Positions 7,900 to 40,339 of a stretch of 64,000 nt of DNA are shown here, in pieces. Origin of the DNA: Obrimoposthia wandeli (Eukaryota). The notes beneath the pieces are model-generated. The model was not told the DNA's origin. It saw nothing but the letters and a program-made list of their open reading frames with translations, and did no database searches. The translations under genes were made by a program, and so were the position numbers. Each line of letters opens with the position of its first letter. The first letter of the stretch is position 1. The DNA lies in assembly GCA_977020255.1 (NCBI GenBank), contig CDROCS010002126.1, forward strand, positions 372,001-436,000. The letters run 5' to 3'.

Positions 7900-7985
7900 T
7901 ACTTAAAAATTGTTCCACCTAGTTTCAAACGTTTGTTTATACCTGATGCTTTAGATGTTTTCTTACGTTTATAACCACTTCCCTT

Positions 7986-10439: not shown

Positions 10440-11398
10440 TGTTCTCCATTATTCTTCATTATATTTAAAAAATATTAAAGTCTTTAATTGCTTCTTAACT
10501 TTTATAAACATTTTTACAGTTTCATATATTCATTGGTAGAAAGCAATAATGATTTAGAGAATTAATTTCAAATATTACATCACTCTTTGTTATTTGAGAA
10601 TTTCTTTACCAACCAGAAGTCATAATCGTTTATCCTAAGATGCATATACAAGCTCATTCAACCAGGCTCGAAAAGATCACATAAATGTTTGGGTTTTTAT
10701 GAGATAATTTATGTTTTGATTATATGTAGGATTTGGAATTCGATTCAGGTATTGATCGGTAGCCAATGAAGATCCAATAAGTGTTCACATGTACTAAAAC
10801 TTTTATTTAATTTGAATATAATAGTTTAAAATTATTTGAAAGCGATTTAATTGATAAACTAGAATAGTAAACAGTCTTGATTCAAGTCTTGATATAAAAA
10901 TCGAATGTGTTAGCATAGCTTTTATCTCAGTAGTAAAGTATTTTCTTATTAGATAAATCTTTTTTATGAATGTTGTGTGTTCTCAGCACTTTATTTATTT
11001 GACAATTCATTGTAATATTTCATTTTTGGATGCAACCAATGTTCTTAATTTGACTTTTATATTTAATAATAATTTCACCGACATTTATAAAACTTTTATA
11101 ATTGGTATATATTATTTTTAGAACCAAATTACATAGCCTTGATTTTATTTTTATTAATCTTCAATTGTCTTGATTTTATCCATATAGTTATTTCGATAAA
11201 AAAATTCAATATATTTCTCTCATTAGAATCAAAATCAACATAAAGTTGTGTATCGCCAGCTCAAAGATGGAAATGAATGTTGTATTTCTGAATATTAGCT
11301 ACGATTGAAGAAGAACAAATCAAAAATGGGATTATATGAAAAATCAAATCTGGCAATGACAAAATTATTTAAATATTCAGGATATTGAGTATTTAACT
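10440..11398 (-). mobile_element. Degenerate L2/CR1-type LINE ORF2 3' fragment
   Basis: Minus-strand EHLLDLHWLPINT*IEFQILHII (L2-type LHWLP..RI.FK motif) and FHL*AGDTQLY (YADDTQLY). Homologous to copies near 55.1 kb and 60.8 kb. Confidence 0.7.
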
Positions 11399-13289
11399 AG
11401 TAGGTGGAAGGATGGAGTCTAAGCCACTTTACCCCCCCCCCCCTAAAGGATGTCACTCCATAAGGATGTCACTCCTTCGGTGACCCAACATATACCCTTA
11501 TGGTATGGCAAGACACCTTTTATGGTGTGACACCCTTATGGAGTGACACCCTTTAGGAGGGAGGCGGGAGGCGGGGAGGGGAGGAGAGGGGTAAAGTGGC
11601 TTAGACTCCATCCTTCCTTGATATACTACTATGGTCGTCCATAGTTTAAAGGGTCAAGTGGCTTAGTCTCCACCCATCTTTTTGTGATCTAGTCTCCACC
11701 CATCTTTTTGTGATCTAGTCTCCACCCTTCTTTTTGAGATATATCACTATGAAAGGGTCAAATGGCTTAGTCTCCACCCTTCTTTTTGAGATATACTACT
11801 ATGAAAGGGTCAAGTGGCTTAGTCTCCACCCTTCTTTTAGTGATCTAGTCTCCACCCTTCTTTTTGGCTAACTACTAATTCAAAGGATCAAGTGGCTTAG
11901 TCTCCACCCTTCTTTTTTGTGATCTAGTCCATAATGAAAATTTATGATAAAGTTCACTCTTAACAATTAAGAAATGTGGTTTTAAACACACACACATACA
12001 CTATTTTATGTGAAATTTATGATAAAGTTCACTCTTATCAATTAAGAAATGCGGTTTTTTAACACACACATACACTATTTTATGTGAAATTTAAACTAAA
12101 GTTCACTCTTATAAGTTAATAAATGTATTACGTAATCACACACATACTATTTTATGTGAAATTTAGATCAAAGTTTTTCCTAGGCTTTCACATTTATAGA
12201 ATTATGATAAAATTTCTTTAAATACTTCAATTATATATTAAAATAAAAAATAAAATAAGAAAGAAGTCAGAGAATAATACAAAATTAAACACATTTATTA
12301 TGTAATTTCATAATATCATCTTCAAACTTAAGTGAATAACATTTACAAAGTAAGAAAGTCCATTCTTTATACATTCTTTTCGTTTCAACGACTAAGTTAC
12401 AACGGAATTAATAGAAAATTAGTAAAAATATTAATTTATTTGAATATTTGAATGAGAGTTTGAATAAATGAGAGGTAGAATGAATGTAAATGAATAAAAT
12501 TATGCATGCAAGTATGAATGTCATTTACAAGTAAGAGTCTTAGCAAGTGAATGTAATTTAAAAATAAGAGTGTCGATAGTTTGATTGAATGCAAGTGTAA
12601 TTTAGACTATAAGTAAATTAAAATAGAGTTTTTGTTGAATAAATTATAGTTAGATTGAATGCAAGTATGACGAGCAAGTGATTGATAGTTTGAATTTTCA
12701 ATACAAGTAAGTGGGTTTAGCAAGTGAATGTAATTTTAAAAATAAGAGTGTCGATAGTTTGATTGAATGCAAGTGTAATTTAGACTATAAGTAAATTAAA
12801 ATATAGTTTTTGTTGAATAAATTATAGTTAGATTGAATGCAAGTATGACGAGCAAGTGATTGATAGTTTGAATTTTCAATACAAGTAAGTGGGTTTAGCA
12901 AGTGAATGTAATTTTTAAAAAATAAGAGTGTCGATAGTTTGATTGAATGCAAGTGTAATTTAGACTATAAGTAAATTAAAATAGAGATTTTGTTGAATAA
13001 ATTATAGTTAGATTGAATGCAAGTATGACGAGCAAGTGATTGATAGTATGAATTTCAATACAAGTAAGTGGGTTTAGCAAGTGAATGTAATTTTTTAAAA
13101 TAAGAGTGTCGATAGTTTGATTGAATGCAAGTGTAATTTAGACTATAAGTAAATTAAAATAGAGATTTTGTTGAATAAATTATAGTTAGATTGAATGCAA
13201 GTATGACGAGCAAGTGATTGATAGTTTGAATTTTCAATACAAGTAAGTGGGTTTAGCAAGTGAATGTAATTTTTAAAAATAAGAGTGTC
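11399..13289 (+). repeat. Left terminal inverted repeat of element B
   Basis: Reverse complement of 24626-26752 apart from a ~48-bp terminal-hairpin deletion and one fewer ~179-bp unit. Contains a terminal palindrome, repeated AAGTGGCTTAGTCTCCACCC motifs and ~65-bp repeats near 11940-12170. Confidence 0.95.
12543..13289 (+). repeat. ~179-bp tandem repeat in left TIR (4 full units plus partial)
   Basis: GCAAGTGAATGTAATT..AAAATAAGAGTGTCGATAG recurs at about 12543, 12720, 12898, 13077 and 13255. Confidence 0.95.
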
Positions 13290-13344
13290 AATGTTATATA
13301 ATAGTTTAATAAAAGTTAATCATTGAATACAAGAACACAAATTC

Positions 13345-16300
13345 TAATAACTTACAACATATTAAAGTGAATATATGCATAAATATATTATGTTTACAAG
13401 TCAATTTATTGTAAACGATAGTAAACTATCAATTACTTTTTATATAATGTAATATTATAGTAATAACTTACAATATATTAAATTGAAAATATGCAAATTA
13501 TATTATGTTTACAAGTCAATTTATTGATCAAATCATTAAAATTATGATTAATAAGTAAATTACTTGAAGATTTGGTTGTAAATTATATTAAAGTATTAAC
13601 TTACAACATTTAAACTGAATATATACAACAACAAATAAATATTGTAGTTTACAAGTAAATTACTTGAAGTTTTTGTTGTAAATTATATTAAAGTAATAAC
13701 TTACAACATATTAAATTGAAAAATATACCAAAATAAATTATGTTTACAAGTCAATTTATTGTACAAAACATTAAACTTATGTTTATTAAGTAAACTACTT
13801 GAAGTTTTTGTTGAAAATTATAATAAAGTAATAACTTACAACATATTAAAGTGAATATATGCATAAATTTATTGTAAACGATAGTAAACTATCAATTACT
13901 TTTTTATGTAATGTAATATTATAGTAATAACTTACAACGTGTTAAATTGAAAATATGCAAATTATATTATGTTTACAAGTCAATTTATTGATCAAATCAT
14001 TAATATTATGATTAATAAGTAAACTACTTGAAGTTTTTATTGAAAATTATATTAAAGTAATAACTTACAACATTTTAAACTGAATATATACAACAACAAA
14101 TAAATATTGTAGTTTACAAGTAAATTACTTGAAGTTTTTGTTGTAAATTATATTAAAGTAATAACTTACAACATTTTAAAGTGAATATATGCATAAATAT
14201 ATTATGTTTACAAGTCAATTTATTGTAAACGATAGTAAACTATCAATTACTTTTTATATAATGTAATATTATAGTAATAACTTACAATATATTAAATTGA
14301 AAATATGCAAATTATATTATGTTTACAAGTCAATTTATTGATCAAATCATTAAAATTATGATTAATAAGTAAATTACTTGAAGAATTGGTTGTAAATTAT
14401 ATTAAAGTATTATTAACTGAACAACATATATAATAAGTAAATGAAGTTTTTGTTGTAAATTATATTAAAGTAATAACCAACATATTAAACTATTATGTTT
14501 ACAAGTCAATTTATTGTACAAAACATTAAAATTATGATTAATAAGTAAATTACTTGAAGATTTGGTTGTAAATTATATTAAAGTATTAACTTACAACATA
14601 TTAAAGTGAATATATGCATAAATTTATTGTAAACGATAGTAAACTATCAATTACTTTTTTATGTAATGTAATATTATAGTAATAACTTACAATATATTAA
14701 ATTGAAAATATGCAAATTATATTATGTTTACAAGTCAATTTATTGATCAAATCATTAAAATTATGATTAATAAGTAAATTACTTGAAGTCAAGTAAAGTT
14801 ACTTGAAGTTAAAATTATATTAAAGTAATAACTTACAACATTTTAAAGTGAATATATGCATAAATATATTATGTTTACAAGTCAATTTATTGTAAACGAC
14901 AGTAAACTATGAATTACTTTTTATGTAATGAAATATTACAGTATTAACTTACAACGTGTTAAATTGAAAATATATAAATTATATTATGTTTACAAGTCAA
15001 TTTATTGATCAAATCATTAAAATTATGATTAATAAGTAAATTACTTGAAGATTTGGTTGTAAATTATATTAAAGTATTAACTTACAACATTTTAAACTGA
15101 ATATATACAACAACAAATAAATATTGTAGTTTACAAGTAAATTACTTGAAGTTTTTTGTTGTAAATTATATTAAAGTAATAACTTACAACATATTAAATT
15201 GAAAATATACCAAAATAAATTATGTTTACAAGTCAATTTATTGTACAAAACATTAAACTTATGATTAAGTAAACTACTTGAAGTTTTTTTTTTGTTGAAA
15301 ATTATATTAAAGTAATAACTTACAACATTTTAAAGTGAATATATGCATAAATATATTATGTGTAAACGATAGTAAACTATCAATTACGTTTTTATGTAAT
15401 GTAATATTATAGTAATAACTTACAACGTGTTAAATTGAAAATATGCAAATTATATTATGTTTACAAGTCAATTTATTGATCAATCATTAATATTATGATT
15501 AATAAGTAAACTACTTGAAGTTTTTGTTGAAAATTATATTAAAGTAATAACTTACAACATATTAAAGTGAATATATGCATAAAAATATTATGTTTACAAG
15601 TCAATTTATTGTAAACGACAGTAAACTATCAATTACGTTTTATGTAAATTATATTAAAGTAATGTAATATTATAGTAATAACTTACAATATATTAAATTG
15701 AAAATATATCAAAATTATATTATGTTTACAAGTCAATTTATTGTACAAAACATTAAACTTATGTTTAATAAGTAAACTACTTGAAGTTTTTGTTGAAAAT
15801 TATATTAAAGTAATAACTTACAACATATTAAAGTGAATATATGCATAAATATATTATGTTTACAAGTCAATTTATTGTAAACGATAGTAAACTACTTGAA
15901 GTTTTTGTTGTAAATTATATTAAAGTAATAACTTACAACATATTAAATTGAAAATATATCAAAATAAATTATGTTTACAAGTCAATTTATTGTACAAAAC
16001 ATTAAAATTATGATTAATAAGTAAATTACTTGAAGAATTGGTTGTAAATTATATTAAAGTATTAACTTACAACATTTTAAACGGAATATATACAACAACA
16101 AATAAATATTGTAGTTTACAAGTAAATTACTTGAAGTTTTTGTTGTAAATTATATTAAAGTAATAACTTACAACATTTTAAATTGAATATATACATAAAT
16201 ATATTATGTTTACAAGTCAATTTATTGTAAACGACAGTAAACTATGAATTACTTTTTTATGTAATGAAATATTACAGTATTAACTTACAACGTGTTAAAT

Positions 16301-19300
16301 TGAAAATATGCAAATTATATTATGTTTACAAGTCAATTTATTGATCAAATCATTAAAATTATGATTAATAAGTAAATTACTTGAAGATTTGGTTGTAAAT
16401 TATATTAAAGTAATAACTTACAACATTTTAAACTGAATATATACAACAACAAATAAATATTGTAGTTTACAAGTAAATTACTTGAAGTTTTTTGTTGTAA
16501 ATTATATTAAAGTAATAACTTACAACATATTAAATATACCAAATATACCAAAATAAATTATGTTTACAAGTCAATTTATTGTACAAAACATTAAACTTAT
16601 GTTTAATAAGTAAACTACTTGAAGTTTTTGTTGTAAATTATATTAAAGTAATAACTTACAACATATTAAATTGAAAATATACCAAAATAAATTATGTTTA
16701 CAAGTCAATTTATTGTACAAAACATTAAACTTATGTTTAATAAGTAAACTACTTGAAGTTTTTGTTGAAAATTATATTAAAGTAATAACTTACAACATTT
16801 TAAAGTGAATATATGCATAAATATATTATGTTTACAAGTCAATTTATTGTAAACGATAGTAAACTATGTTTAATTACTACTTTTTTATGTAATGTAATAT
16901 TATAGTAATAACTTACAACATATTAAATTGAAAATATGCAAATTATATTATGTTTACAAGTCAATTTATTGATCAAATCATTAATATTATGATTAATAAG
17001 TAAACTACTTGAAGTTTTTGTTGAAAATTATATTAAAGTAATAACTTACAACATTTTAAACTGAATATATACAACAACAAATAAATATTGTAGTTTACAA
17101 GTAAACTACTTGAAGTTTTTGTTGTAAATTATATTAAAGTAATAACTTACAACATATTAAATTGAAAATATATCAAAATAAATTATGTTTACAAGTCAAT
17201 TTATTGTACAAAACATTAAACTTATGTTTAATAAGTAAACTACTTGAAGTTTTTGTTGAAAATTATATGAAAGTAATAACTTACAACCTTTTAAAGTGCA
17301 TATATGTTTAGATATATTATGTTTACAAGTCAATTTATTGTAAACGACAGTAAACTATGAATTACTTTTTATGTAATGAAATATTATAGTATTAACTTAC
17401 AACGTGTTAAATTGAAAATATGCAAAAATAAATTATGTTTACAAGTCAATTTATTGTACAAAACATTAAACCTATGTTTAATAAGTAAACTACTTGAAGT
17501 TTTGTTGTAAATTATATTAAAGTAATAACTTACAACATATAAATATATATACAACAACAAATAAATATTGTAGTTTACAAGTAATTACTTGAAGTTTTTG
17601 TTGTAAATTATATTAAAGTAATAACTTACAACATATTAAATTGAAAATATATCAAAATAAATTATGTTTACAAGTCAATTTATTGTACAAAACATTAAAC
17701 TTATGTTTAATAAGTAAACTACTTGAAGTTTTTGTTGAAAATTATATGAAAGTAATAACTTACAACATTTTAAAGTGAATATATGTATAAATATATTATG
17801 TTTACAAGTCAATTTATTGTAAACGACAGTAAACTATGAATTACCTTTTATGTAATGTAATATTATAGTAATAACTTACAACGTGTTAAATTGAAAATAT
17901 GCAAATTATATTATGTTTACAAGTCAATTTATTGTACAAAACATTAAACTTATGTTTAATAAGTAAACTACTTGAAGTTTTTGTTGTAAATTATATTAAA
18001 GTAATAACTTACAACATATAAATATATATACAACAACAAATAAATATTGTAGTTTACAAGTAAATTACTTGAAGTTTTTGTTGTAAATTATATTAAAGTA
18101 ATAACTTACAACATATTAAATTGAAAATATATCAAAATAAATTATGTTTACAAGTCAATTTATTGTACAAAACATTAAACTTATGTTTAATAAGTAAACT
18201 ACTTGAAGTTTTTGTTGAAAATTATATGAAAGTAATAACTTACAACATTTTAAAGTGAATATATGTATAAATATATTATGTTTACAAGTCAATTTATTGT
18301 AAACGACAGTAAACTATGAATTACTTTTTATGTAATGTAATATTATAGTAATAACTTACAACGTGTTAAATTGAAAATATGCAAATTATATTATGTTTAC
18401 AAGTCAATTTATTGATCAATCATTAATATTATGATTAATAAGTAAACTACTTGAAGTTTTTGTTGAAAATTATATTAAAGTAATAACTTACAACATTTTA
18501 AACTGAATATATACAACAACAAATAAATATTGTAGTTTCCAAGTAATTACTTGAAGTTTTTGTTGTAAATTATATTAAAGAAATAACTTACAACATATTA
18601 AATTGAAAATATATCAAAATAAATTATGTTTACAAGTCAATTTATTGTACAAAACATTAAACTTATGTTTAATAAGTAAACTACTTGAAGTTTTTGTTGT
18701 AAATTATATTAAAGTAATAACTTACAACATATAAATATATATACAACAACAAATAAATATTGTAGTTTCCAAGTAATTACTTGAAGTTTTTGTTGTAAAT
18801 TATATTAAAGTAATAACTTACAACATATTAAATTGAAAATATATCAAAATAAATTATGTTTACAAGTCAATTTATTGTACAAAACATTAAACTTATGATT
18901 AATAAGTAAACTACTTGAAGTTTTTGTTGAAAATTATATTAAAGTAATAAGTTACAACATATTAAAGTTAATATATGCATAAATATATTATGTTTACAAG
19001 TCAATTTATTGTACAAAACATTAAACTTATGTTTAATAAGTAAACTACTTGAAGTTTTTGTTGTAAATTATATTAAAGTAATAACTTAAAACATATTAAA
19101 TTGAAAAATATATCAAAATAAATTATGTTTACAAGTCAATTTATTGTACAAAACATTAAACTTATGTTTAATAAGTTTTTGTTGAAAATTATATTAAAGT
19201 AATAACTTACAACATTTTAAACTAAATATATACAACAACAAATAAATATTGTAGTTTACAAGTAAATTACTTGAAGTTTTTATTGTAAATTATATTAAAG

Positions 19301-22300
19301 TAATAACTTACAACATATTAAATTGAAAATATATCAAAAATAAATTATGTTTACAAGTCAATTTATTGTACAAAACATTAAACTTATGTTTAATAAGTAA
19401 ACTACTTGAAGTTTTTGTTGAAAATTATATGAAAGTAATAACTTACAACATTTTAAAGTGAATATATGTATAAATATATTATGTTTACAAGTCAATTTAT
19501 TGTAAACGACAGTAAACTATGAATTACTTTTTATGTAATGTAATATTATAGTAATAACTTACAACGTGTTAAATTGAAAATATGCAAATTATATTATGTT
19601 TACAAGTCAATTTATTGATCAATCATTAATATTATGATTAATAAGTAAACTACTTGAAGTTTTTGTTGAAAATTATATTAAAGTAATAACTTACAACATA
19701 TAAATATATATACAACAACAAATAAATATTGTAGTTTCCAAGTAATTACTTGAAGTTTTTGTTGTAAATTATATTAAAGAAATAACTTACAACATATTAA
19801 ATTGAAAATATATCAAAATAAATTATGTTTACAAGTCAATTTATTGTACAAAACATTAAACTTATGTTTAATAAGTAAACTACTTGAAGTTTTTGTTGTA
19901 AATTATATTAAAGTAATAACTTACAACATATTAAATTGAAAATATATCAAAAATAAATTATGTTTACAAGTCAATTTATTGTACAAAACATTAAACTTAT
20001 GATTAATAAGTAAACTACTTGAAGTTTTTGTTGAAAATTATATTAAAGTAATAAGTTACAACATATTAAAGTTAATATATGCATAAATATATTATGTTTA
20101 CAAGTCAATTTATTGTACAAAACATTAAACTTATGTTTAATAAGTAAACTACTTGAAGTTTTTGTTGAAAATTATATGAAAGTAATAACTTACAACATTT
20201 TAAAGTGAATATATGTATAAATATATTATGTTTACAAGTCAATTTATTGTAAACGACAGTAAACTATGAATTACTTTTTATGTAATGTAATATTATAGTA
20301 ATAACTTACAACGTGTTAAATTGAAAATATGCAAATTATATTATGTTTACAAGTCAATTTATTGTACAAAACATTAAACTTATGTTTAATAAGTAAACTA
20401 CTTGAAGTTTTTGTTGTAAATTATATTAAAGTAATAACTTACAACATATAAATATATATACAACAACAAATAAATATTGTAGTTTACAAGTAAATTACTT
20501 GAAGTTTTTGTTGTAAATTATATTAAAGTAATAACTTACAACATATTAAATTGAAAATATATCAAAATAAATTATGTTTACAAGTCAATTTATTGTACAA
20601 AACATTAAACTTATGTTTAATAAGTAAACTACTTGAAGTTTTTGTTGAAAATTATATGAAAGTAATAACTTACAACATTTTAAAGTGAATATATGTATAA
20701 ATATATTATGTTTACAAGTCAATTTATTGTAAACGACAGTAAACTATGAATTACTTTTTATGTAATGTAATATTATAGTAATAACTTACAACGTGTTAAA
20801 TTGAAAATATGCAAATTATATTATGTTTACAAGTCAATTTATTGATCAATCATTAATATTATGATTAATAAGTAAACTACTTGAAGTTTTTGTTGAAAAT
20901 TATATTAAAGTAATAACTTACAACATTTTAAACTGAATATATACAACAACAAATAAATATTGTAGTTTCCAAGTAATTACTTGAAGTTTTTGTTGTAAAT
21001 TATATTAAAGTAATAACTTACAACATATTAAATTGAAAATATATCAAAATAAATTATGTTTACAAGTCAATTTATTGTACAAAACATTAAACTTATGATT
21101 AATAAGTAAACTACTTGAAGTTTTTGTTGAAAATTATATTAAAGTAATAAGTTACAACATATTAAAGTTAATATATGCATAAATATATTATGTTTACAAG
21201 TCAATTTATTGTACAAAACATTAAACTTATGTTTAATAAGTAAACTACTTGAAGTTTTTTGTTGTAAATTATATTAAAGTAATAACTTAAAACATATTAA
21301 ATTGAAAAATATATCAAAATAAATTATGTTTACAAGTCAATTTATTGTACAAAACATTAAACTTATGTTTAATAAGTAAACTACTCGAAGTTTTTGTTGA
21401 AAATTATATTAAAGTAATAACTTACAACATTTAAACTAAATATATACAACAACAAATAAATATTGTAGTTTACAAGTAAATTACTTGAAGTTTTTGTTGT
21501 AAATTATATTAAAGTAATAACTTACAACATATTAAATTGAAAATATATCAAAAATAAATTATGTTTACAAGTCAATTTATTGTACAAAACATTAAACTTA
21601 TGTTTAATAAGTAAACTACTTGAAGTTTTTGTTGAAAATTATATGAAAGTAATAACTTACAACATTTTAAAGTGAATATATGTATAAATATATTATGTTT
21701 ACAAGTCAATTTATTGTAAACGACAGTAAACTATGAATTACTTTTTATGTAATGTAATATTATAGTAATAACTTACAACGTGTTAAATTGAAAATATGCA
21801 AATTATATTATGTTTACAAGTCAATTTATTGATCAATCATTAATATTATGATTAATAAGTAAACTACTTGAAGTTTTGTTGAAAATTATATTAAAGTAAT
21901 AACTTACAACATATAAATATATATACAACAACAAATAAATATTGTAGTTTCCAAGTAATTACTTGAAAAGTTTTGTTGTAAATTATATTAAAGAAAACTA
22001 ACTTACAACATATTAAATTGAAAATATATCAAAATAAATTATGTTTACAAGTCAATTTATTGTACAAAACATTAAACTTATGTTTAATAAGTAAACTACT
22101 TGAAGTTTTTGTTGTAAATTATATTAAAGTAATAACTTACAACATATTAAATTGAAAATATATCAAAAATAAATTATGTTTACAAGTCAATTTATTGTAC
22201 AAAACATTAAACTTATGATTAATAAGTAAACTACTTGAAGTTTTTGTTGAAAATTATATTAAAGTAATAAGTTACAACATATTAAAGTTAATATATGCAT

Positions 22301-24330
22301 AAATATATTATGTTTACAAGTCAATTTATTGTACAAAACATTAAACTTATGTTTAATAAGTAAACTACTTGAAGTTTTTGTTGTAAATTATATTAAAGTA
22401 ATAACTTACAACATATTAAATTGAAAAATATATCAAAATAAATTATGTTTACAAGTCAATTTATTGTACAAAACATTAAACTTATGTTTAATAAGTAAAC
22501 TACTTGAAGTTTTGTTGTAAATTATATTAAAGTAATAACTTACAACATATTAAATTGAAAATATATCAAAATAAATTATGTTTACAAGTCAATTTATTGT
22601 ACAAAACATTAAACTTATGTTTAATAAGTAAACTACTTGAAGTTTTTGTTGTAAATTATATTAAAGTAATAACTTACAAAATATTAAATTGAAAATATAT
22701 CAAAATAAATTATGTTTACAAGTCAATTTATTGTACAAAACATTAAACTTATGTTTAATAAGTAAACTACTTGAAGTTTTTGTTGAAAATTATATTAAAG
22801 TAATAACTTACAACATTTTAAACTAAATATATACAACAACAAAAAAATATTGTAGTTTACAAGTAAATTACTTGAAGTTTTTGTTGTAAATTATATTAAA
22901 GTAATAACTTACAACATATTAAAGTTAATATATGCATAAATATATTATGTTTACAAGTCAATTTATTGTACAAAACAATAAACTTATGATTATTAAGTAA
23001 ACTACTTGAAGTTTTTGTTGAAAATTATATTAAAGTAATAACTTACAACATTTTAAACTAAATATATACAACAACAAATAAATATTGTAGTTTACAAGTA
23101 AATTACTTGAAGTTTTTGTTGTAAATTATATTAAAGTAATAACTTACAACATATTAAATTGAAAATATATCAAAATAAATTATGTTTACAAGTCAATTTA
23201 TTGTACAAAACATTAAACTTATGTTTAATAAGTAAACTACTTGAAGTTTTTGTTGAAAATTATATTAAAGTAATAACTTACAACATTTTAAACGGAATAT
23301 ATACAACAACAAATAAATATTGTAGTTTACAAGTAAATTACTTGAAGTTTTGTTGTAAATTATATTAAAGTAATAACTTACAACATATTAAATTGAAAAT
23401 ATATCAAAATAAATTATGTTTACAAGTCAATTTATTGTACAAAACATTAAACTTATGTTTAATAAGTAAACTACTTGAAGTTTTTTGTTGTAAATTATAT
23501 TAAAGTAATAAGTTACAACATATTAAAGTTAATATATGCATAAATATATTATGTTTACAAGTCAATTTATTGTACAAAACAATAAACTTATGATTATTAA
23601 GTAAACTACTTGAAGTTTTTGTTGTAAATTATATTAAAGTAATAACTTAAAACATATTAAATTGAAAAATATATCAAAATAAATTATGTTTACAAGTCAA
23701 TTTATTGTACAAAACATTAAACTTATGTTTAATAAGTAAACTACTCGAAGTTTTTGTTGAAAATTATATTAAAGTAATAACTTACAACATTTTAAACTAA
23801 ATATATACAACAACAAATAAATATTGTAGTTTACAAGTAAATTACTTGAAGTTTTTATTGTAAATTATATTAAAGTAATAACTTACAACATATTAAATTG
23901 AAAATATATCAAAAATAAATTATGTTTACAAGTCAATTTATTGTACAAAACAATAAACTTATGATTATTAAGTAAACTACTTGAAGTTTTTGTTGAAAAT
24001 TATAGTAAAGTAATAACTTACAACATATTAAAGTGAATATATGCATAAATATATTATGTTTACAAGTCAATTTATTGTAAACGATAGTAAACTATCAATT
24101 ACTTTTTTTATATAATGTAATATTATAGTAATAACTTACAATATATTAAATTGAAAATATGCAAATTATATTATGTTTACAAGTCAATTTATTGATCAAA
24201 TCATTAATATTATGATTAATAAGTAAACTACTTGAAGTTTTTGTTGAAAATTATATTAAAGTAATAACTTACAACATTTTAAACTAAATATATACAACAA
24301 CAAATAAATATTGTAGTTTACAAGTAAATT
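13345..24330. repeat. ~11-kb AT-rich mosaic satellite forming the core of element B
   Basis: About four related ~100-135-bp unit types share AAGTAATAACTTACAAC and TGTTTACAAGTCAATTTATTG. 480-bp higher-order periodicity (TAAACGACAG at 17820/18300 and 20250/20730). Confidence 0.97.
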
Positions 24331-24625
24331 TTCGAATGTCTAGTAAACAAATTTAAATAACTCGAAAAACATTTTCTATTCGAAATAATAAACTTAATAG
24401 TCTTTATATTTGAAATTTATGTTATATGCAGTGGGCGGGGTACAGCAACTAACTTTATAATTAAAATATTTTTTTTTAGTTTAAGGTTAAAATCACTTGA
24501 TAAAAACCACAATAATGTGATAAAGAATATTATTTAACATATAAAATGAATTTTTGAAGAAATAAATTGAATATTCATATTATATTAAACGGACAATGGC
24601 AAAAAAAATATCAAGTAATTTAAAA

Positions 24626-26752
24626 AATCAAACTATCGACACTCTTATTTTAAAATTACATTCACTTGCTAAACCCACTTACTTGTATTGAAAATTCAAA
24701 CTATCAATCACTTGCTCGTCATACTTGCATTCAATCTAACTATAATTTATTCAACAAAAACTCTATTTTAATTTACTTATAGTCTAAATTACACTTGCAT
24801 TCAATCAAACTATCGACACTCTTATTTTTAAAAATTACATTCACTTGCTAAACCCACTTACTTGTATTGAAAATTCAAACTATCAATCACTTGCTCGTCA
24901 TACTTGCATTCAATCTAACTATAATTTATTCAACAAAAACTCTATTTTAATTTACTTATAGTCTAAATTACACTTGCATTCAATCAAACTATCGACACTC
25001 TTATTTTAAAAAATTACATTCACTTGCTAAACCCACTTACTTGTATTGAAATTCATACTATCAATCACTTGCTCGTCATACTTGCATTCAATCTAACTAT
25101 AATTTATTCAACAAAATCTCTATTTTAATTTACTTATAGTCTAAATTACACTTGCATTCAATCAAACTATCGACACTCTTATTTTTAAAAAATTACATTC
25201 ACTTGCTAAACCCACTTACTTGTATTGAAAATTCAAACTATCAATCACTTGCTCGTCATACTTGCATTCAATCTAACTATAATTTATTCAACAAAAACTC
25301 TATTTTTAATTTACTTATAGTCTAAATTACACTTGCATTCAATCAAACTATCGACACTCTTATTTTTTAAAATTACATTCACTTGCTAAACCCACTTACT
25401 TGTATTGAAAATTCAAACTATCAATCACTTGCTCGTCATACTTGCATTCAATCTAACTATAATTTATTCAACAAAAACTCTATTTTAATTTACTTATAGT
25501 CTAAATTACACTTGCATTCAATCAAACTATCGACACTCTTATTTTTAAATTACATTCACTTGCTAAGACTCTTACTTGTAAATGACATTCATACTTGCAT
25601 GCATAATTTTATTCATTTACATTCATTCTACCTCTCATTTATTCAAACTCTCATTCAAATATTCAAATAAATTAATATTTTTACTAATTTTCTATTAATT
25701 CCGTTGTAACTTAGTCGTTGAAACGAAAAGAATGTATAAAGAATGGACTTTCTTACTTTGTAAATGTTATTCACTTAAGTTTGAAGATGATATTATGAAA
25801 TTACATAATAAATGTGTTTAATTTTGTATTATTCTCTGACTTCTTTCTTATTTTATTTTTTTATTTTAATATATAATTGAAGTATTTAAAGAAATTTTAT
25901 CATAATTCTATAAATGTGAAAGCCTAGGAAAAAACTTTGATCTAAATTTCACATAAAATAGTATATGTGTGATTACCTAATACATTTATTAACTTATAAG
26001 AGTGAACTTTAGTTTAAATTTCACATAAAATAGTGTATGTGTGTGTTAAAAAACCGCATTTCTTAATTGATAAGAGTGAACTTTATCATAAATTTCACAT
26101 AAAATAGTGTATGTGTGTGTGTTTAAAACCACATTTCTTAATTGTTAAGAGTGAACTTTATCATAAATTTTCATTATGGACTAGATCACAAAAAAGAAGG
26201 GTGGAGACTAAGCCACTTGATCCTTTGAATTAGTAGTTAGCCAAAAAGAAGGGTGGAGACTAGATCACTAAAAGAAGGGTGGAGACTAAGCCACTTGACC
26301 CTTTCATAGTAGTATATCTCAAAAAGAAGGGTGGAGACTAAGCCATTTGACCCTTTCATAGTGATATATCTCAAAAAGAAGGGTGGAGACTAGATCACAA
26401 AAAGATGGGTGGAGACTAGATCACAAAAAGATGGGTGGAGACTAAGCCACTTGACCCTTTAAACTATGGACGACCATAGTAGTATATCAAGGAAGGATGG
26501 AGTCTAAGCCACTTTACCCCTCTCCTCCCCTCCCCGCCTCCCGCCTCCCTCCTAAAGGGTGTCACTCCATAAGGGTGTCACACCATAAAAGGTGTCTTGC
26601 CATACCATAAGGGTATATGTTGGGTCACCGAAGGTGAGGCAACATATACCCTTATGGTGTGGCAAGACACCTTTTATGATGTGACATCCTTATGGAGTGA
26701 CATCCTTTAGGGGGGGGGGTAAAGTGGCTTAGACTCCATCCTTCCACCTACT
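24626..26752 (-). repeat. Right terminal inverted repeat of element B
   Basis: Inverted copy of 11399-13289, with 5 full ~179-bp units (24661-25560) and a complete ~260-bp terminal palindrome (26491-26745). Confidence 0.95.
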
Positions 26753-26758
26753 TTAACT

Positions 26759-27000: not shown

Positions 27001-27968
27001 AAAACAACAATTTACAAATGTTTATTTTAATTTATTCACTTTACTAATAATGTGATGATAAAGTAATATCTTTAGTTCTATATTAAAATATGTAAAAAAC
27101 ATTTAAAATTTAAAATTCGAGTCTAATTTTAAAATCTAGATCGACTTTAGTTCATCAAGGCAAATTAATATGTAATAAAATATAAGATAAGAAATCTATA
27201 TTCATAATAAACACATACAGGCAAATAAATTACCTAAAGCAATACACTGAGTGTTTCTAACTCATCAGTTATAATAAATTAATGATTTATTTATATGTTA
27301 ATTATCCGTACTAACGATTTTCACTTTTTTTCTGTTACTTAATTAAAGTTTTTTACTATTAATTTGATGATTCTAATTACAAATATGAATTGTATTGGAT
27401 TCAGATTTGAAGAATTAAAAGGCAAACATTTTATTAATATCCTTGTCTAATTTTTAATAGATTTTACTAATATACAAAATATTTTACACTATCTAATTAT
27501 AACCTAACTTGTTAAAAAAACAAATTTTCCTTTTTGTTATAACGATAAAAAAAAATTTAAAAAAAAATCTAAAATTTAGCTGCTGAGCTAGATTATAAAA
27601 TATAATACCATATCAAAAATGATTTGATCCAAAATTGCTTTCGACTTGTAGGCTTAGCGGATAAATGAGTATCGCCAATTGTTCCTGTCCTCTAATTGAT
27701 ATAATTTTTTTATAGTAGAAAACAATTTTTCAATATTAAAAAATTGCTCACAGTGGAAAACTTTATGGATGTAGATTTGCATTTTCCTACAACGATGTCT
27801 GATGATATATTGAGTATTGTTTGGGACGATGATGTGATTGAAACTGACGAGAAGGAGAAAATATCGAGCCGGCACCAATCATAGCAATTTTAATGCAATT
27901 CCTAAAGTGTTAAAGAAGTTACAATACATTCTTTACGATGAACCATGTTCGATCGAAACATTTTCTTA

Positions 27969-28991
27969 CAACTAGAATATGAGACAAACTTTGAACATAA
28001 AAAAAAGTTATCAAAACATTTATTTTGAAAAACATTTTAAAATGAGTAAACATAAGTATGACAAACTTTTGTATGCTAATTTAAAATGCAAACAATTCAA
28101 TGATCAGCCACAGTTCTAAGTTTAATTTTAACATTTGACATCATTTGTTGGACAACAACCATATCCACATATCTACGTTTCCTTCTTATCCTTCTAATTA
28201 ACTGTTTCGCCTCTTTGGCTATCCAATAATTTTCATACACTTTTACCTTAAAAAGCGAACAGAAGTGCACTATTGATCAAAGTTCTGAAACCTTTCTGTG
28301 TCACCAAACGTTTTTATCTTTCAAAAAACAATAACACACTTATTGTACTGAGCTGTTTCTCCATCAGGCCAAAAAATTGTTTCATACTTGACATAAGTGA
28401 GCAGCACCCTTTTAATTCATTTAGGGAGATGTCACGTGTCATATATCCATTATCTATGAAAATAAGTTTGAAAAGGTTCATTCCTTTTGGTAACAGGCAT
28501 TCTTTTGTAGTACTTCAGACTTGACTTCTTAAGAATCTTTTGATTCCAAACTTACTCGCCGTCTTCGCCTGTAATGTACAAATACGTTCCTTCATGATTT
28601 AAACCAGAAGTTTGACTTTCTTAGCACGCATTTTGATGGCTTTTCTTTCTGTTTCAACTTTTCCTGAAGCAGGCTTTTCTTCCATCTTCTTTAGCACTCT
28701 ATATATCAGACTTCTTTTTAAACCCACCGATAAAAATTGATTAACAGTGAAAGACTTGACTGGTTCTTTATGTTTTTTATAAAAATCAAATAGTATGGTG
28801 TCTTGATCCAACATAGAAAAATACTTAATCGCAAAGAATATACTGTAACTTCTCTAACACTTTATGACTTGTATAAAAAATTTATAGGATAACAATTCAA
28901 TAGTCACCTGAAAGGCATACAAATAATTATTTTGAAAAAGTTTCTATGCGTAGTTTTTAAAATTATTAAAGTTTGTCGGATTTTCTAGTTG
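27969..28991 (-). mobile_element. Internally deleted Tc1/mariner element, copy A
   Basis: TA|CAACTAGAATATGAGACAAACTTT ... AAAGTTTGTCGGATTTTCTAGTTG|TA. Transposase-like N-terminus MLDQDTILFDFYKKHK and C-terminus FKVKVYENYWIAK. Homologous to 47298-48527. Confidence 0.75.
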
Positions 28992-30155: not shown

Positions 30156-31500
30156 AGTAGGTACTTTGATGGAGTCTAGACCATTTGTGTGCGCACACCA
30201 TGTTAAAGGGTGTCACACCATAGGGATGTCACACCATAAGGGTCTGGCTCAGAAAGGTTATGAAGGTTTGAAGGTATGGTCGTGACCGTCTATGGACGGC
30301 CAACATACCCAAGGGGTTGTGGTCGTCCATAGGTCAAAGGGTCGGGGTCAGTTTTGACTTGAATGTTTGAAGGTATAATTAAGGTATACTATGGTTGGCC
30401 ATCACATCTAAAGGGTCATGGTCGGTCATAGATGAAGGGGTCGGGCTAAAGACAAAATCAAGTTTAAATATCAAGGTTTAAGTACATGGTTGGAATCATC
30501 TTTAGAAGACGAATTCATCCATAAAGGTATGATTGTCCATAGATGAAGGGTTAAAAAAAATAAGAATTTCATAGTTTCAAGTACATGGTTGTATTTGTCA
30601 ACATATGACGAGTGTAATCATGTAAAAAATTTATGGTCGTCCACAAGTTAAGGGTCAGATTTGAAACAAACATGATAATTTTATTACATGGTTGTATTTG
30701 TCTATGAAAATTGAGTTCAAATATACCCTTAAGGTCATGCATACTTTAAGAGGTCTTTGTGGAAAAATAAAATTCCTTGTAATTTAAAAAGATAATATAT
30801 TTTTAAATTTAAATTTGTGCCAAATTTTTTATGGTTTCTATTGATTTAATTAAACAAATTTTAATTTAACGGGTTTTTAAAATAAAATAATAAAGTAACA
30901 TTATTTAAAATAAATATTAAGGAAAATGTTAATAAACTCAAATTACTTTACTAACAGTATTATTATTATTATTATATTTTCATAAATATTTAAATTAACG
31001 CAAATTTTTATCCATTTTATTAATGTAATTAAACAATTTTGTTTTATAAAATTAAGATTTCTTGGTGGAAAAATAAAAAATACTTGTAATTTTGTTTTCT
31101 TCAAAATAATAATTTAAATTTGCGTCAATTTAATTTGTTAGATATTATTAAATTTAAACAAATTTTAATTTAACAAGTTTTTAAATAAAATATTAAAGTT
31201 TCAAACACATCTATCAATCAATTATTCTATGTGAAAGTTAAAGTTCACTCTTATCAGTTAAGGAATGTATTACGTAACAACACACACACTATTCTATTTG
31301 AAAATTTAGATCAAAGTTTTTTCCAGGCTTAGTCATCTAAAGAATTATGGTAAAATTTCTCTAAATAACTTAAATTATATGTCATGCATACTTTAAGGTG
31401 TTCTGGAGAAAAATACAAATACTTGTAATTTTCAATAATAAAAAATATTTTTAAATTTAAACTTGTGCCAAATTTTTCAATGTTTCTTTGATTTAATTAA
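30156..31500 (+). mobile_element. Solo diverged Polinton-type terminus C, related to the element B TIR
   Basis: Starts AGTAGGT..GATGGAGTCTAG; shares TAAAGGGTGTCACACCATA and ATGGTCGTCCATAG..AAAGGGTC motifs with the B TIR. 31225-31380 is clearly homologous to 12070-12235. Confidence 0.7.
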
Positions 31501-32014
31501 ACAAATTTGATTTTAAACATAAGTATCAAACAAATGTTAATTATAAAATAAAATAAATAATTAATAATTTGATAAATATTCATCTTACCACAAGTTATTC
31601 ATCGAATCCATTGATGTATGTATGACAGTCTAATAGCATTATTCTATAATTTAACTATAACTTTAGAAAAAAAACAAAACAAATTTATTACATTAAAATT
31701 TAAAAATTGCGCGTTTTTTATTGTTTACAATTAATGAATTAAAACAATGACAAAAATAGTTTCAAACGCAAAGCAATTCATATTAATTATAACTAATTTA
31801 TTAAAATAAATAAATTTACAAGTACTATTTGATTATTTTTAAATATTAATAATTTATTTATTTAAAAAATAATACTTCAAGTTTAATTAATAACTACTAA
31901 AATACAAATGTTAAAAATGATAGAATAATACAAGATATTAACTCACTTGTACTTTTGTTAGTTGTTGTTGTTGTTACAATTTATGCTTTAAACCGTGAAT
32001 ATTGTGTTTAAATT

Positions 32015-32336
32015 GTGAATACGCTTAAAACACTCAGAATTCGATTCTGAGACGATTGGCGCTATCAAAATATGAAAAAAAACATTTTTTCTACATAATT
32101 CTAAACTTTACAAAATGTCATAATTCAGCAAGGAAACATAATTTGGTTTTGTGAATACGCTTAAAACACTCAGAATTCGATTCTGAGACGATTGGCGCTA
32201 TCAAAATATGAAAAAAAACATTTTTTCTACATAATTCTAAACTTTACAAAATGTCATAATTCAGCAAGGAAACATAATTTGGTTTTGTGAATACGCTTAA
32301 AACACTCAGAATTCGATTCTGAGACGATTGGCGCTA
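32015..32336. repeat. 136-bp tandem repeat, ~2.4 near-identical copies
   Basis: GTGAATACGCTTAAAACACTCAGAATTCG at 32015, 32151 and 32287. Confidence 0.95.
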
Positions 32337-33576: not shown

Positions 33577-35708
33577 TCCACGAGCGAGAAATTACACTAC
33601 TTCGAATATATATGGCGTGCCTTTGTAGAAGATTATGTAATCTTGGTTAAGTTGTGATTATCAAATAGATTCATGGTACCAAAGGATATTCACAACATTA
33701 AGAATTGTACATTAAATTAATTAATAGTTTTAAACTGTTGGCCGTTTTGTAGATCAAATAGATACCTTTTTTAAAATGAACTCGTATAGAATAGAATGAT
33801 ATTTTGTTCTGATTCTAGTTTCAAAACCCAATTATTGTTTCGTAAATGATTTTTTTCTGAATATTTTCTATATCTGCCTCTATGGCTGACAAGAATCTAT
33901 GGAATGACAAGAATCGTCGGACCATACAAAGGATTGCTATTTCTGTCCATATAATGGTTTTGGTGTTACCACAAAGACAAGAAAAACAGAGAACTGTCAC
34001 AATCTAATATCATCAATTCATCCGATATCTTGGAGCAAGAAAAAGTTTCGCGAGAAAGCAATTTGACAAGTGCTGACCATGATGTAGCGTTTTTATACAA
34101 ATAGATAACCACACGTTTGAGTTAAATGATCTTTTACACGTTTGGAGTCCAACAATAACAAAACCAGAAATGTTGAGATTTGACAGGCTGATATTTAGTC
34201 CAGTCCCACACTATTGACATCGCTATTCTGTTAAATCGTTAAAATCTATTGTACCTGCCAATGAAACAAATCGCGCCATCTACTCTCAATAACACGATTG
34301 ACTCATAATATTGATAATGACTGGCAATCTGATCATTGTGTTCTCTCTGGGGGACATATTAAAGTATGCATTGTAGCAGTGCTTTCCAATCTTTACGTTA
34401 CAACGCCTACCTTTGAGAAAGATCTAATATCGGCACATCCCCTATATTGAATCAAGAAGAACAGGCACATTTTTAAAAAGTAAAATATTTATTAATACAA
34501 AGAATACAAAAACACTTTTTACCCTATATATTCATTTTCATTTCTATTGCGATTGTTGTACTTGTTTAATATAGCTTATTTTAATATTCTAATAATTAGT
34601 ATTTTTCCTTGACAACAAAGGAATTCATGTATGTATATAGGTTATGGAAGTTATTTTTGTTAAAATTTCCGAGCCTCCCTTTGCTCTTGTTCGTGTCTTC
34701 TCAGGAAGGTATTCCTCCCATTTTGGAAATCGCTGCATTAAAGTATAATGATACTAATTTTTCAAAGTATACCACATGCGTAAAGCGTACGTTTCTCAGT
34801 AATATTTTTTTGTTTTCCGCTGTACACACACACACACGTTACAGAGAACCCTTCAATCCCATGCGTACATACTCAATTCTGACTAAATATATAAGATTGA
34901 TTTTAAAAAAGTAATAAATTTTTAATCAGTTGCTTGTCTGAGAGATAATATGACAATTAAAGCAGAATATGCTTATTATTTGAAGGTAATCTGAAAATTA
35001 ATAATATTCGAGGACAGTAACCTCATAATGGAGAATGTGGACACTATCGTACCTTTAGAAGAATGTAGTAACAATAATCAAACGTAAAAGAGCATATGTT
35101 GATCATACAGCAGCTGATACAGTGTGTGAAACTAAAAATTAAAAATACCGATAATTTTCGACTACTATTGCTAACACAAAAATTAGAATCACAAATTATA
35201 CAATATTTCATTTTAACAGAAAGAAAATGTTCCTTGTTCAATAATTCGTAAAAATATTAATGTCAGAAATCGAAAAGAAAAACAAAACATTTGTACAAAA
35301 TTTATAAATAACTGCTGTGTCATAGGTTAAGATAGAGCCAATCAAAATTACAAATGATTGTACCTTTTATTGTATTTAGAATTAATGCAATAAATTATTT
35401 TCAATATTCTGTATTTCAATTCTCTGTCTAATTTCACTTACAAGGATATTGTATTTCAATTCGAACACACATGCCACAGGTAGATATTTCCATGAGCTCA
35501 AAACTGTTCTGTGATGTCCGAAATGTCTATGCTGTCTATTGTAATCGGCTTGTCGATATTTAGGAAATTGGTACAACTAGCAATAACTGTAATCGATTAG
35601 TACGTGTTCTTGGCTACATGTTGTGTCTGCAATGGCAGATTTCTGCTGAATATTGACAATTGACTACTGAATTGACTGGTGTATCGAGTGGACTATTCTG
35701 TATTGCAA

Positions 35709-35963
35709 ATGAGCAGCGACCAGATGAAGCCGGCCTCGAGAAGAGTCTGTTGTTGTGGGCCTGGCAAGAGACGGTATCTGCTGCCGCTGTTGTGTACTAC
35801 TGCTCTGACAATCGTCATTGGGATGCGCTCGGAGATGCTGAGTATCATCAGCTACATCAGCAGCAACGCCTCGTCTTCAGGCAGCAGCTCCAAAGAAGAA
35901 GTCTCATACATCTTCAAGCCATCAAGTCATCGCCAGCTGCCTTGGACGCCACCTTCACTCGAG
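35709..35963 (+). CDS. SLC17/sialin-family MFS transporter, exon 1 of 7
   Basis: ATG at 35709; MSSDQMK..KRRYLLPLLCTTALTIVIGMRSEMLS (TM1 with conserved R)..LPWTPPSLE|gt. The donor (gttcac) is weak but its phase matches exon 2. Confidence 0.8.
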
Positions 35964-36867
35964 GTTCACAATAAGTTTTCTATTATTATAATAGTTTTGA
36001 AGTTTCTGTCAATTAGATAAAAATAGTACACGTTAGTAGATGTTTTATTCAATTGTTACGAGTCATTTTTTTATAAATTAACCTTTTGCTTTCGTAATTT
36101 ATAAACATTATCAACTTAAAATACTTTTACCATTATTCTATTTTTGGTGACTATTGCAATGATAATACGATATTAAATATATTTTATTTATCATGATTAA
36201 AAACAATTATTGTTTTGATTAAGGATTTATCTGTATCATACTTTTATCAAGCGTCATAAAATACTACATAAATTTTGATCCAATTTTTTACATACAAAGT
36301 AAAGAATTTTTTATGAAACCTTTTATAGTTATTGAGAAAAATGCACAGAAATAATTTTTAATATTGATTTGACAATAAAAATTCTCTTCATTCAAAAAAT
36401 AAATATATTAAAACAAAATTTTACTGTTTTTGCTCTATGAGAAGCCCACTCAATTAATAATCCACTTTGTCCATAGAAGTTAAATTTTTACTTTGTGGAT
36501 ATCGTAGGTTAAGATTATAGATTATATTGATTAAACCGGATATTAGAACATAATCTTCTAACATTACTGGTGATTAAATGGCATCTAATTAAGTTAACAG
36601 ACAAAGTATTTATTTTGATACAAAGCTAGGAGCTCTAGATTTTGTTTTAACTTGTTTCCTTTACTACATCCCTTAGTCTTAGATTTTACTTTGCGTTAAC
36701 GTTATATTGAGTAGGTATATGTATGACTTTTCGAAATTTCCGTACAGTTTCTGTTGTCAAAATAAGAGAAGCCTAAACTTACGTCATTGAGTAATTGAAT
36801 AAAAATACTTATCTAATAGCTTTTTCCAAAATGACTAAGATTCTGACAATAAGCTAAATATTTACAG

Positions 36868-37074
36868 GATTTCATCGAGAACGCTTTCTTCGTGGCCAAT
36901 ATCGTGGCCTCGCCGCTCGGTGGCTACCTCACCATCAACCACGACCCCAGTCTGTTGCTAGGCAGCAGTGTTGCCATGACCTGTGGGCTCAACCTCTTTC
37001 TTCCCTTGGCAGCCACGATTGGAGGAGACAGTCCCATTCGTGTGGGAGTCGTTATCTTTCTCCGAATTCTTCAG
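36868..37074 (+). CDS. SLC17-family transporter, exon 2
   Basis: tttacag|DFIENAFFVANIVASPLGGYL..FLPLAA..RILQ|gtgaga, phase 0/0. Confidence 0.92.
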
Positions 37075-38279
37075 GTGAGATTAGAATCAGACTGACAAAG
37101 ATAGGCTTCAAGTTGGACGCTCGGAATTGAATGAAATTTTGCATACAGTTAAATAATGATAAATTAGTATACTTAACGAAATTTTTCCACGAGAGCTCAA
37201 AATAAGTCTGTATTTACACAAAAGAAACGCTAAATTGTTAATCAATGTCAGCTGATGTTTTATTATTAGCTGGTACTTTAATTATTTAATTCCAATTATA
37301 TTTTGTTATTTGAATTTCATCATTATGAAATGTATAAACAGTAAAAATAAAATAATACTTCAACAAAATTCCTGATAAAGACAATTTTAAAAAAATATTA
37401 CGGAATTATTTACTTCATTTATTTACTTTTAGTTATGTAATATATTAAGATAATTTGTTTAACAATACTTATATAAATGAATAAATCTTCTGTTTGTAAA
37501 ATCTGGCTCTTTTGAATTTTGTCTACGAAGGAAAATAAACATTTTTTCTAGTACAAATTTTAACGGTATTTAATATTATAAGATCAAATTAATTACATTT
37601 ATATTATTTTACTATTTTTTCTTTACTTTCAAACTCGATTATCTATTCTTCAATTTTTCATCAAAATTACTTTGCCAAAAATCATTTATAATTTGTAATA
37701 TTTAAGATAAAATAAATATATTTAATTTGACGTTTTTCTATTGCTTCTTTTGTGTACATGAAGAGTTCATTTGAGTTCGCACGGAAGGCCTTGAGAGCGC
37801 ATTATTTTTGTATAATTAACTATCTATCTAAATATAGAAATTTTCATTTTGTTACAACTCTGTAAAATATGCAGTATAGTATCAGTAATTCGCTCAATTT
37901 TTCTCTCCCATTATCATTAAATATGCCTGACATAATGAAGCACCATCTCATTTGGGGAATTAATTTCATTTATTTAACTATGAATTGGTTAACAATGGAA
38001 TAATCCCAACGTTGGTCCATCCATCTAAATCATTCCAATAATATAGACTAATTCTATTATATTGACGACGAATCTATGCTTATTATATGCTAATTATACA
38101 GAGTTTCAAAATACAGCATTTTAATTAAATAGTATGCATATCCATTAAATCTATATCAATTAATAATTAAAAATTATGTTATAGTGAATTTGTAAAACTT
38201 TTCTTATATATTTTTAAAATTTGATATATACTCTCTAATATCTCTAATATAGACTGTGTGATTCTTTCTTTCAAGTCTT

Positions 38280-38560
38280 TGACAATCACAAGTAGTCATT
38301 TTGGGTGCACTTAGTGGCCATCTGACTGTACCATCTCGAAATGTATTTAGATCATTAAGCTAATGCTGAAAATTCAAACCCCAATGGTTTGGTGCATCAT
38401 CTTGCACAAACCAAAGCTGCCTCGGTGAAACACTAATAGATTCTGCAATTTTAGGTGCAACCTGTTTTGTAACATATCGTAATATTTATCTTTAGTTGCA
38501 GTTCAGTTGAAAAAATACGGTTCAATAATATCATCAAACCAAACTCCTGTTCATATTGGT
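38280..38560 (-). mobile_element. Degenerate Tc1/mariner transposase fragment
   Basis: Minus-strand LWFVQDDAPNH..RWPLSAPKMTTCD resembles WFQQDGAPAH..WP.RSPDLTP.D. Confidence 0.5.
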
Positions 38561-39930: not shown

Positions 39931-39934
39931 GTGA

Positions 39935-40222: not shown

Positions 40223-40339
40223 TAATAATGATAATAATATATTTAAGACCGTGATAATATCTAATAAATCTGATTTATTACTTACAAGCACTTCTTGTTT
40301 TTCATTATTCTTCGTAACATTTTCTGAATAGTTAATTCT

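Follow-up and report, generated by a model that had tools for sequence, protein, structure and literature searches.

Introduction

Among described mobile elements, Polintons or Mavericks (adintoviruses, with Beta-type PolB in the available text of PMC8502044) come closest to the element presented here. The shared features are a 6-bp target-site duplication (TSD), AG...CT tips with an AGT repeat and long TIRs, together with coding relatives that carry PolB with an OTU-like motif, an A32-type ATPase, an rve integrase and a capsid-like protein. For the release of Polintons and the start of their replication a panhandle model exists, which is presented as a proposal in the accessible parts of 10.64898/2026.07.28.741278 and PMC4046053. 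Here we describe element B from a window of 64,000 nucleotides of Obrimoposthia wandeli (assembly GCA_977020255.1, contig CDROCS010002126.1, positions 372,001 to 436,000), the whole stretch to which all window coordinates below refer. What sets element B and its family apart from Polintons as described is a hairpin of 255 nt placed 7 nt into each TIR, together with inverted and solo versions of this hairpin; element B itself encodes nothing.

Terminal hairpins with flip/flop loop orientations are found in parvoviruses, including AAV, and in poxviruses. The ends described here share with them a long, mismatched terminal fold-back and two loop orientations, but the 3' end is unpaired, no Rep was found among eight scanned ORFs, one orientation makes up 92-96% of the ends, the breakpoints vary, and the ends are integrated with a TSD. 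Bidnaviruses possess a protein-primed PolB related to Polinton PolB (available text of PMC4061559), and the N-terminal region is structurally similar; the likeness to bidnavirus hairpins drawn in the preliminary description does not hold, as the same text reports bidnavirus ITRs as not forming hairpins of the parvovirus type. Casposons are self-synthesising and some of their TIRs contain internal palindromes, but they are prokaryotic and use a Cas1 integrase (accessible part of PMC4046053).

Terminal palindromes of 52 nt have been described for endogenous virophages of Halocafeteria and for PLV subtype 4, where they occur preferentially without pPolB and where self-priming was proposed (available text of 10.64898/2026.07.28.741278). 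Like the hairpins reported here, they lie inside TIRs and adjoin the TSD of integrated elements with an rve integrase. In the present case, however, the hairpins measure 170-255 nt, the elements have pPolB with a predicted terminal protein and the tip is unpaired; population data on covariation, inversion and solos are given here, unlike for the protist palindromes in that text. Terminal palindromes are already in print for protist virophages and PLVs and for casposons, and the ends described here are a variant of Polinton end architecture with rich natural variation. The words hairpin and palindrome are absent from the nematode survey 10.1101/2023.08.22.554363 and the vertebrate survey PMC8097293. 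In the literature on Polinton ends that was covered, most subscription papers and Repbase reports lying outside it, no account was found of animal Polintons with pPolB whose ends show such hairpins, inversions or solos; PMC11296320 gave no further information on such ends. Hairpins in pPolB elements weaken the association between palindromes and the lack of pPolB, as far as it is reported for protist elements in the available text.

Two large and very young families in one genome supply thousands of natural end variants. These point to ends that are structured, to inverted forms that can be inherited at both ends and to recombination of the ends as direct repeats, and they narrow the range of models by disfavouring a routine rolling hairpin. 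The hairpin ends also define short substrates for the biochemistry of protein priming and of the nuclease embedded in the polymerase, and together these findings explain a new kind of small, TSD-flanked remnant.

Classification and features of element B

Element B (11399..26752, no strand assigned) is a non-autonomous Polinton derivative of 15,354 bp without any ORF of at least 90 aa; polymerase and integrase ORFs are absent, and the element is therefore not autonomous. It is flanked by the duplication TTAACT at 11393..11398 on the left and 26753..26758 on the right (both + strand), which the preliminary description had missed together with the tips and the exact bounds. The left TIR (11399..13295, + strand, about 1.9 kb) contains 74-bp and 178-bp tandem repeats; its identity to the right TIR (24808..26752, - strand) is 99.4% over 1827 bp. 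The outermost 7 nt at either end lie outside the hairpin and are unpaired, AGTAGGT at 11399..11405 and ACCTACT-3' at 26746..26752 (both + strand), the latter being a candidate protein-priming template. These tips are followed inwards by the terminal hairpins (11406..11617 and 26491..26745) and by subterminal arrays of a 16-nt terminal motif, the left one (11648..11929, - strand) with seven copies in the orientation of the inner hairpin arm, the right one at 26179..26460 (+ strand). An AT-rich satellite (17% GC) fills the interior at 13452..24330; comparison of the interior with a coding relative by tblastx gave no match and no coding remnant.

A 4-bp TTAA duplication, a Kolobok-like feature, was considered for element B and rejected, the duplication being 6 bp long and varying between sites.

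In two relatives of element B the polymerase gene is replaced by the same AT-rich satellite. Because the long TIR of element B equals the satellite-side end of these two polymerase-less relatives, element B is likely a copy-back-type derivative in which one end was duplicated. At loci L039-L040 (G000:C1469) and L033 the satellite takes the place of the polymerase while the capsid/integrase half is retained, and the elements at these loci are likely intermediates toward element B.

The Polinton identity proposed for the end of element B is supported by the TIRs, the tips, the 6-bp TSD and the coding relatives. The assembly of 1.35 Gb contains 2925 exact copies of the 21-nt terminus, against 0 for a control, and a 6-bp TSD is present in 27 of 32 consecutive +/- end pairs. 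Five family elements were read whole. The TIRs with AG...CT tips, 1.9 kb long in element B, measure 590-820 bp in a coding copy. Those of the five elements that are 12-12.5 kb long contain a 1213-aa polymerase, an A32-type packaging ATPase (PF04665 match in a relative, above cut-off), an rve integrase (PF00665 match in a relative, E 2.5e-4, below the curated cut-off and in a split frame) and a 406-aa capsid-like ORF, which sits at the expected place but has no Pfam match; several reading frames are split in the coding copies examined. The capsid-like ORF exists in at least 102 copies at 99-100% identity, from which it follows that the family is very young. No HUH/Rep family was detected among the eight ORFs scanned from one coding copy, which cover part of its frames, and the viral_contigs set yielded no relatives of the polymerase.

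Terminal hairpin

DNA folding confirmed the right-end fold-back of 255 nt at 26491-26745, where the preliminary description had placed it. This hairpin is intact. Its outer stem is a perfect 30 bp (26491-26520 paired with 26716-26745), one arm contains an extra pyrimidine tract of 26 nt, and four single mismatches and one 2x2 loop interrupt the inner stem of about 80 bp; the apex TCACC-GAA-GGTGA at 26625..26637 (+ strand) is in the majority orientation. The DNA MFE of the + strand is -120.4 kcal/mol as compared to -33.9+/-3.6 for shuffled sequences (z -24), that of the - strand -116.8 kcal/mol as compared to -36.5+/-4.2 (z -19), with 60 dinucleotide shuffles per strand. In the ensemble computation the pairing probability of the 3'-terminal 7 nt is at most 0.01.

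For the left end the same fold had been claimed, with a deletion of about 48 bp in one arm. The coordinates 11406-11617 stand, the full fold does not: the outer arm is short by 45 nt and carries one further substitution, the deletion takes out half of the apex stem, and only the outer 65 bp or so of the stem remain, with an energy of -73 to -76 kcal/mol (z -13 to -15). The deletion junction is private to this copy, occurring once in the whole genome by pattern search.

The 16-nt motif is found nine times in the end, as one outward and eight inverted copies, and the inner arm of the hairpin is the first member of the inverted array. Both variants of the outer stem are also present within the subterminal array. 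Over 262 nt, complete pairing of the TIRs with each other yields -360 kcal/mol and folding into two local hairpins -237 kcal/mol; as the duplex is the more stable form, the hairpin state would be a kinetic one.

Variation among family ends was studied in the first 90 of the 2925 ends in contig order, unselected for similarity; the 40 best DNA matches, near-identical by selection, were left out. An inverted copy of the outer stem is clear in 60 of the 90 ends, whereas 30 scored below 20 for the inner copy, many of them unpaired fragments or noisy. Among 27 TSD-verified elements the outer stem is present at both ends in 25, at one end in two and at neither in none, and in 19 the two ends differ by a private hairpin indel of at least 10 nt. 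The hairpin is thus family-wide, which refutes a one-off fold-back duplication, the possibility on which the original proposal would have failed.

Compensatory changes between the arms, which had been suggested as a check, were found when family termini were compared. Arm could be read against arm in 56 of the 90 ends, positions 8-21 being fixed by the search and hence uninformative. Positions 24 and 25 switch their pair type jointly (24 vs 32 ends) with no mismatch, the pair at position 29 is C-G in 39 ends and A-T in 12, and position 26 is paired in 38, mismatched in 16 and a wobble in two. A 17-nt deletion is mirrored: of the 90 ends, 12 have it in the outer and 10 in the inner arm. Several sampled ends have small indels clustered in one arm. 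The covariation amounts to about five events at the level of subfamilies, not to 56. According to the available text of PMC8794818, a single step of template switching can exchange several bases in a compensatory way and also yield inverted loops; because it creates such covariation, the latter argues for copying from arm to arm and not, by itself, for selection.

Loop orientation

Inversion of the loop, the second kind of variation that had been anticipated, does occur at family termini but is rare (about 8%) and variable in length. Genome-wide, 1417 matches in the majority orientation stand against 132 inverted ones. The share of about 8% is approximate, since the gap windows of the two patterns differ (85-115 for the majority and 70-130 for the inverted pattern, the latter with 32 + 100 matches) and at least nine of the 132 inverted matches are solos. 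In the unselected sample one clearly inverted loop was seen in 56 readable ends, which is below the 8% expectation; a reading of the 90-end sample as free of flop forms was overturned by the genome-wide loop patterns.

Inspection of 50 of the 132 inverted ends revealed at least eight outer-stem types and three loop types, the shortest inverted tracts comprising only the loop and the longest the entire hairpin. Inversion of the whole hairpin was seen at one end of a long element, and a second case is a solo. Inverted ends are overrepresented in the subfamily whose centre is more perfect (31/44 vs 22/53, p 0.007), and a marker mismatch is symmetrised in 8 of 18 inverted vs 1 of 20 other ends (Fisher p 0.007), the marker being unreadable in 24 and 70 ends. 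In the available text of PMC8794818, inversion combined with symmetrised mismatches is ascribed to template switching between strands.

Elements inverted at both ends have a TSD in six of six cases tested, and in the six double-inverted elements both ends share the inverted loop and neighbouring features with few differences. The partners of eight further inverted ends comprise one inverted end and five that are not inverted, the remaining two being solos. Most inversions would accordingly be events at a single end, some of them copied to both ends before integration. Over both families described here, 10 double-inverted candidates (6 + 4) were counted vs about 3-4 expected (p 0.001-0.006, a rough estimate). 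The insertion L188/L189 (G000:C2455) has a TSD and an inverted loop at both ends; most of its inner arm is gone and the outer stem is kept.

Solo hairpins

The pattern tip-hairpin-tip was found at 11 loci of 214-273 bp, 10 of them from the family of element B, and a perfect 6-bp TSD is present at eight of the 11. Solo LTRs arise when terminal direct repeats recombine and one repeat is left between the original TSD. As the palindrome lies inside the TIR, the two ends of a Polinton of this family are also direct repeats of each other, and by analogy the solo hairpins are most simply taken as recombination products like solo LTRs, with the difference that direct repeats exist here only because each inverted end is a palindrome.

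A second family with terminal hairpins

A second Polinton family was recognized from an element of about 15 kb (TSD TATATT, tip AGAAGT) that is nested in a copy of the first family at G000:C5763, about 123150-138360 (L031:3655 to L032). Its capsid is 48% identical to that of the first family, and its end sequence is different. The genome contains 2408 exact termini of this family. The end consists of a free 6-nt tip followed by a hairpin of about 170 nt with a C/G tract (z -23), and an inner inverted copy is present in 28 of 30 ends. The geometry of tip plus hairpin is common to both families despite their different end sequences. The 19-nt loop is found in one orientation at 1822 ends vs 72 inverted (4%). 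Double-inverted elements have a TSD in three of three cases tested, each with a different variant of the 19-nt loop, fully inverted, and solos with a TSD account for two of the 12 loci.

Polymerase

Residues 115-400 of the family polymerase were modelled with 93 relatives (94 rows) at a pLDDT of 93. In the predicted structure the first domain comprises a beta-sheet and two helices, and the loop that connects helix 2 to the last strand contains a serine conserved in at least 90% of the 94 rows; the position of this serine matches that of the linking residue of the D1 terminal-protein domain in the available text of 10.1101/2024.03.18.585575. In the second domain one helix starts with a conserved cysteine, as expected for an OTU domain. 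The closest structural matches of the N-terminal region are PolB of adintoviruses and of MELD-viruses. Among solved structures, none resembled the terminal-protein model with an E of 0.001 or better, and sequence and fold searches of the PDB gave nothing significant. PF03175 is absent from the family polymerase in the Pfam search, as it is from PolB of the Beta class under Starrett's Alpha/Beta definition. PF02945 Endonuclease_7 was detected at residues 525-566 above the curated cut-off, and its Cys/His motif is common to both hairpin-bearing families. Judged from the model, the polymerase looks protein-primed, with terminal-protein and OTU-like domains.

Interpretation of the hairpin

We read the hairpin, with moderate confidence, as a structured origin for protein-primed replication that is kept symmetric by template switching. 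A displaced single strand would fold locally, and the hairpin would form before TIRs 12 kb apart could pair. The folded end would leave the 7-nt 3' tip free as a template for the predicted terminal-protein domain of the polymerase, and the exposed AGT-AG tip would adjoin duplex DNA carrying the repeated 16-nt motif. Protein-primed initiation in adenovirus uses a jump-back, and initiation at the AGT-AG tip may likewise involve one. Copying from end to end would maintain one loop orientation, while occasional template switching between arms or strands would restore the symmetry of the stem and invert its centre; the inverted form would then be copied to both ends before integration. Recombination between the ends as direct repeats would delete the interior and leave a solo hairpin.

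Of the two functions that had been suggested for the hairpin, that of a protein-binding platform is plausible from the sequence, the ninefold 16-nt motif of the end making it a candidate. Self-priming is unlikely, since it needs a paired 3' end and inversion of the whole hairpin in each round and neither holds: the 3'-terminal 7 nt are unpaired, and the polymerase has a predicted terminal-protein domain. As a whole, the earlier interpretation is partly supported. Because little of the inner arm is left at either end of the L188/L189 insertion, which still has a TSD, the outer stem alone may matter, or nothing. Against the reading as an origin, and against a universal one, speak also the Polinton ends of the window at 49536/54288 and at 30156, where a long terminal hairpin is absent.

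T4 endonuclease VII resolves four-way junctions, and PF02945 in the polymerase, with its Cys/His motif in both families, gives some weight to a different reading, which we consider unlikely, namely that the palindrome is a signal for excision or integration. A cruciform, or a four-way junction made of two hairpins and the paired TIRs, would serve as a substrate for the endonuclease VII-like domain of the polymerase or as a binding site for the integrase, and the element would be released from the chromosome. The base of the junction lies 6-7 bp inside the end in both families, and the enrichment of inversions in the subfamily with the more perfect centre (p 0.007) agrees with such a signal. 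From the geometry, however, a cut at the base of the cruciform would strand the 7-bp tip on the host side, whereas the tips are invariant, and nuclease insertions of this kind are taken for homing or intein remnants in the available text of 10.1101/2024.03.18.585575.

The hairpin could also be neutral and without a role: a by-product in which the terminal motif array is duplicated in inverted orientation and which perpetuates itself, its symmetry being kept by template switching. The membership of the inner arm in the inverted 16-nt array, where both stem variants occur, fits this, as do the existence of ends without a hairpin, the insertion with little of the inner arm left at either end, and the capacity of template switching to make and maintain perfect stems in one step (available text of PMC8794818). 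We nevertheless regard it as improbable: two families with different end sequences have the same geometry of tip plus hairpin, the outer stem was lost at both ends in none of 27 elements despite frequent private deletions, and the structure costs element copies in the form of solos.

A wider proposal, which we put forward as speculative and rather improbable, would join the structured origin to the nuclease. The free tip of 6-7 nt and the long hairpin would then be the general end signal of this Polinton class, and the embedded endonuclease VII-like domain would cut the four-way junction of the hairpin and thereby couple release from the chromosome to protein-primed initiation, with inverted loops and solos as its footprints. 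If true, cutting of the four-way junction would answer how integrated Polintons get out.

A parvovirus-like, self-priming origin with rolling-hairpin replication, the comparison made in the preliminary description, is largely refuted and very improbable. It would account for a long terminal hairpin with a GAA-type triloop and for inverted forms that are heritable at both ends, and hairpin priming has been proposed for the palindromes of protist virophages and PLVs in the available text of 10.64898/2026.07.28.741278. Against it stand the unpaired 3' tip, the predicted terminal-protein domain and the lack of HUH/Rep in eight scanned ORFs; moreover, the inverted share is about 8% and 4% in the two families and not near half, the breakpoints vary, unlike those of routine rolling-hairpin resolution, and the whole hairpin is seldom inverted.

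It is likewise highly improbable that the deletions, inversions and symmetrisation are largely artefacts of long reads or polishing, with only the basic hairpin real: small indels do cluster in one arm at several ends, the left-end deletion of element B is private to one copy, and hairpins are known from satellites to disturb long-read sequencing (available text of 10.64898/2026.07.13.738322), but the two ends of an insertion agree in inverted loops and private features above chance (p 0.001-0.006), three elements of the second family each have a different loop variant, fully inverted, and solo hairpins have perfect TSDs. Private deletions, including the left one of element B, may be partly artefact; contigs from four sequencing runs do not reach into the host flank on the left.

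Other ends and features of the window

An internally deleted Polinton at 49536-54288 (TSD GTCCAT, tips AGTAGGTGGATGTG) has no long terminal hairpin at either end (49536/54288), where a 7-bp stem is the only fold (z -1.3). The sister terminus at 30156-31500 shares the 16-bp and 74-bp repeats of element B; a terminal hairpin is absent at 30156. One end of element A, a degraded Polinton, lies at 751-920; some 50 nt inward of its tip it bears a branched hairpin (z -7.7), of which a perfect palindrome of 28 nt (823-850) is part. The polymerase and capsid frames beyond it, at 2257-8608, are broken.

Nine mixed ends retrieved with a degenerate tip pattern contain no terminal hairpin of the family type. 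Six metagenome contigs with a related capsid have no recognisable ends, and the hairpins of contig L256 among the material searched are intergenic. A solo-like hairpin of the second family at L265:1344-1656 mirrors some 30 bp of the host flank as well and is either a fold-back product or a read artefact. Locus L246 is a MITE-like element of about 200 bp with AGTAGGTGGATGTG tips and an apparent 6-bp duplication.

Among the remaining features of the window, long inverted arms at 27888-28906 and 47357-48608, 78-92% identical and 19 kb apart, probably represent a different DNA transposon present twice. Exon-like pieces of an MFS transporter gene, interrupted by repeats, extend over 35657-42958 and 63519-63806, with PF07690 at 39432-40130; in the same region, the frame at 41241-41594 is transposase-like and has no Pfam match. 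A tandem repeat with a unit of 136 bp is present in 2.4 perfect copies at 32013-32336, and an AT-rich imperfect palindrome of 120 bp at 38821-38942.
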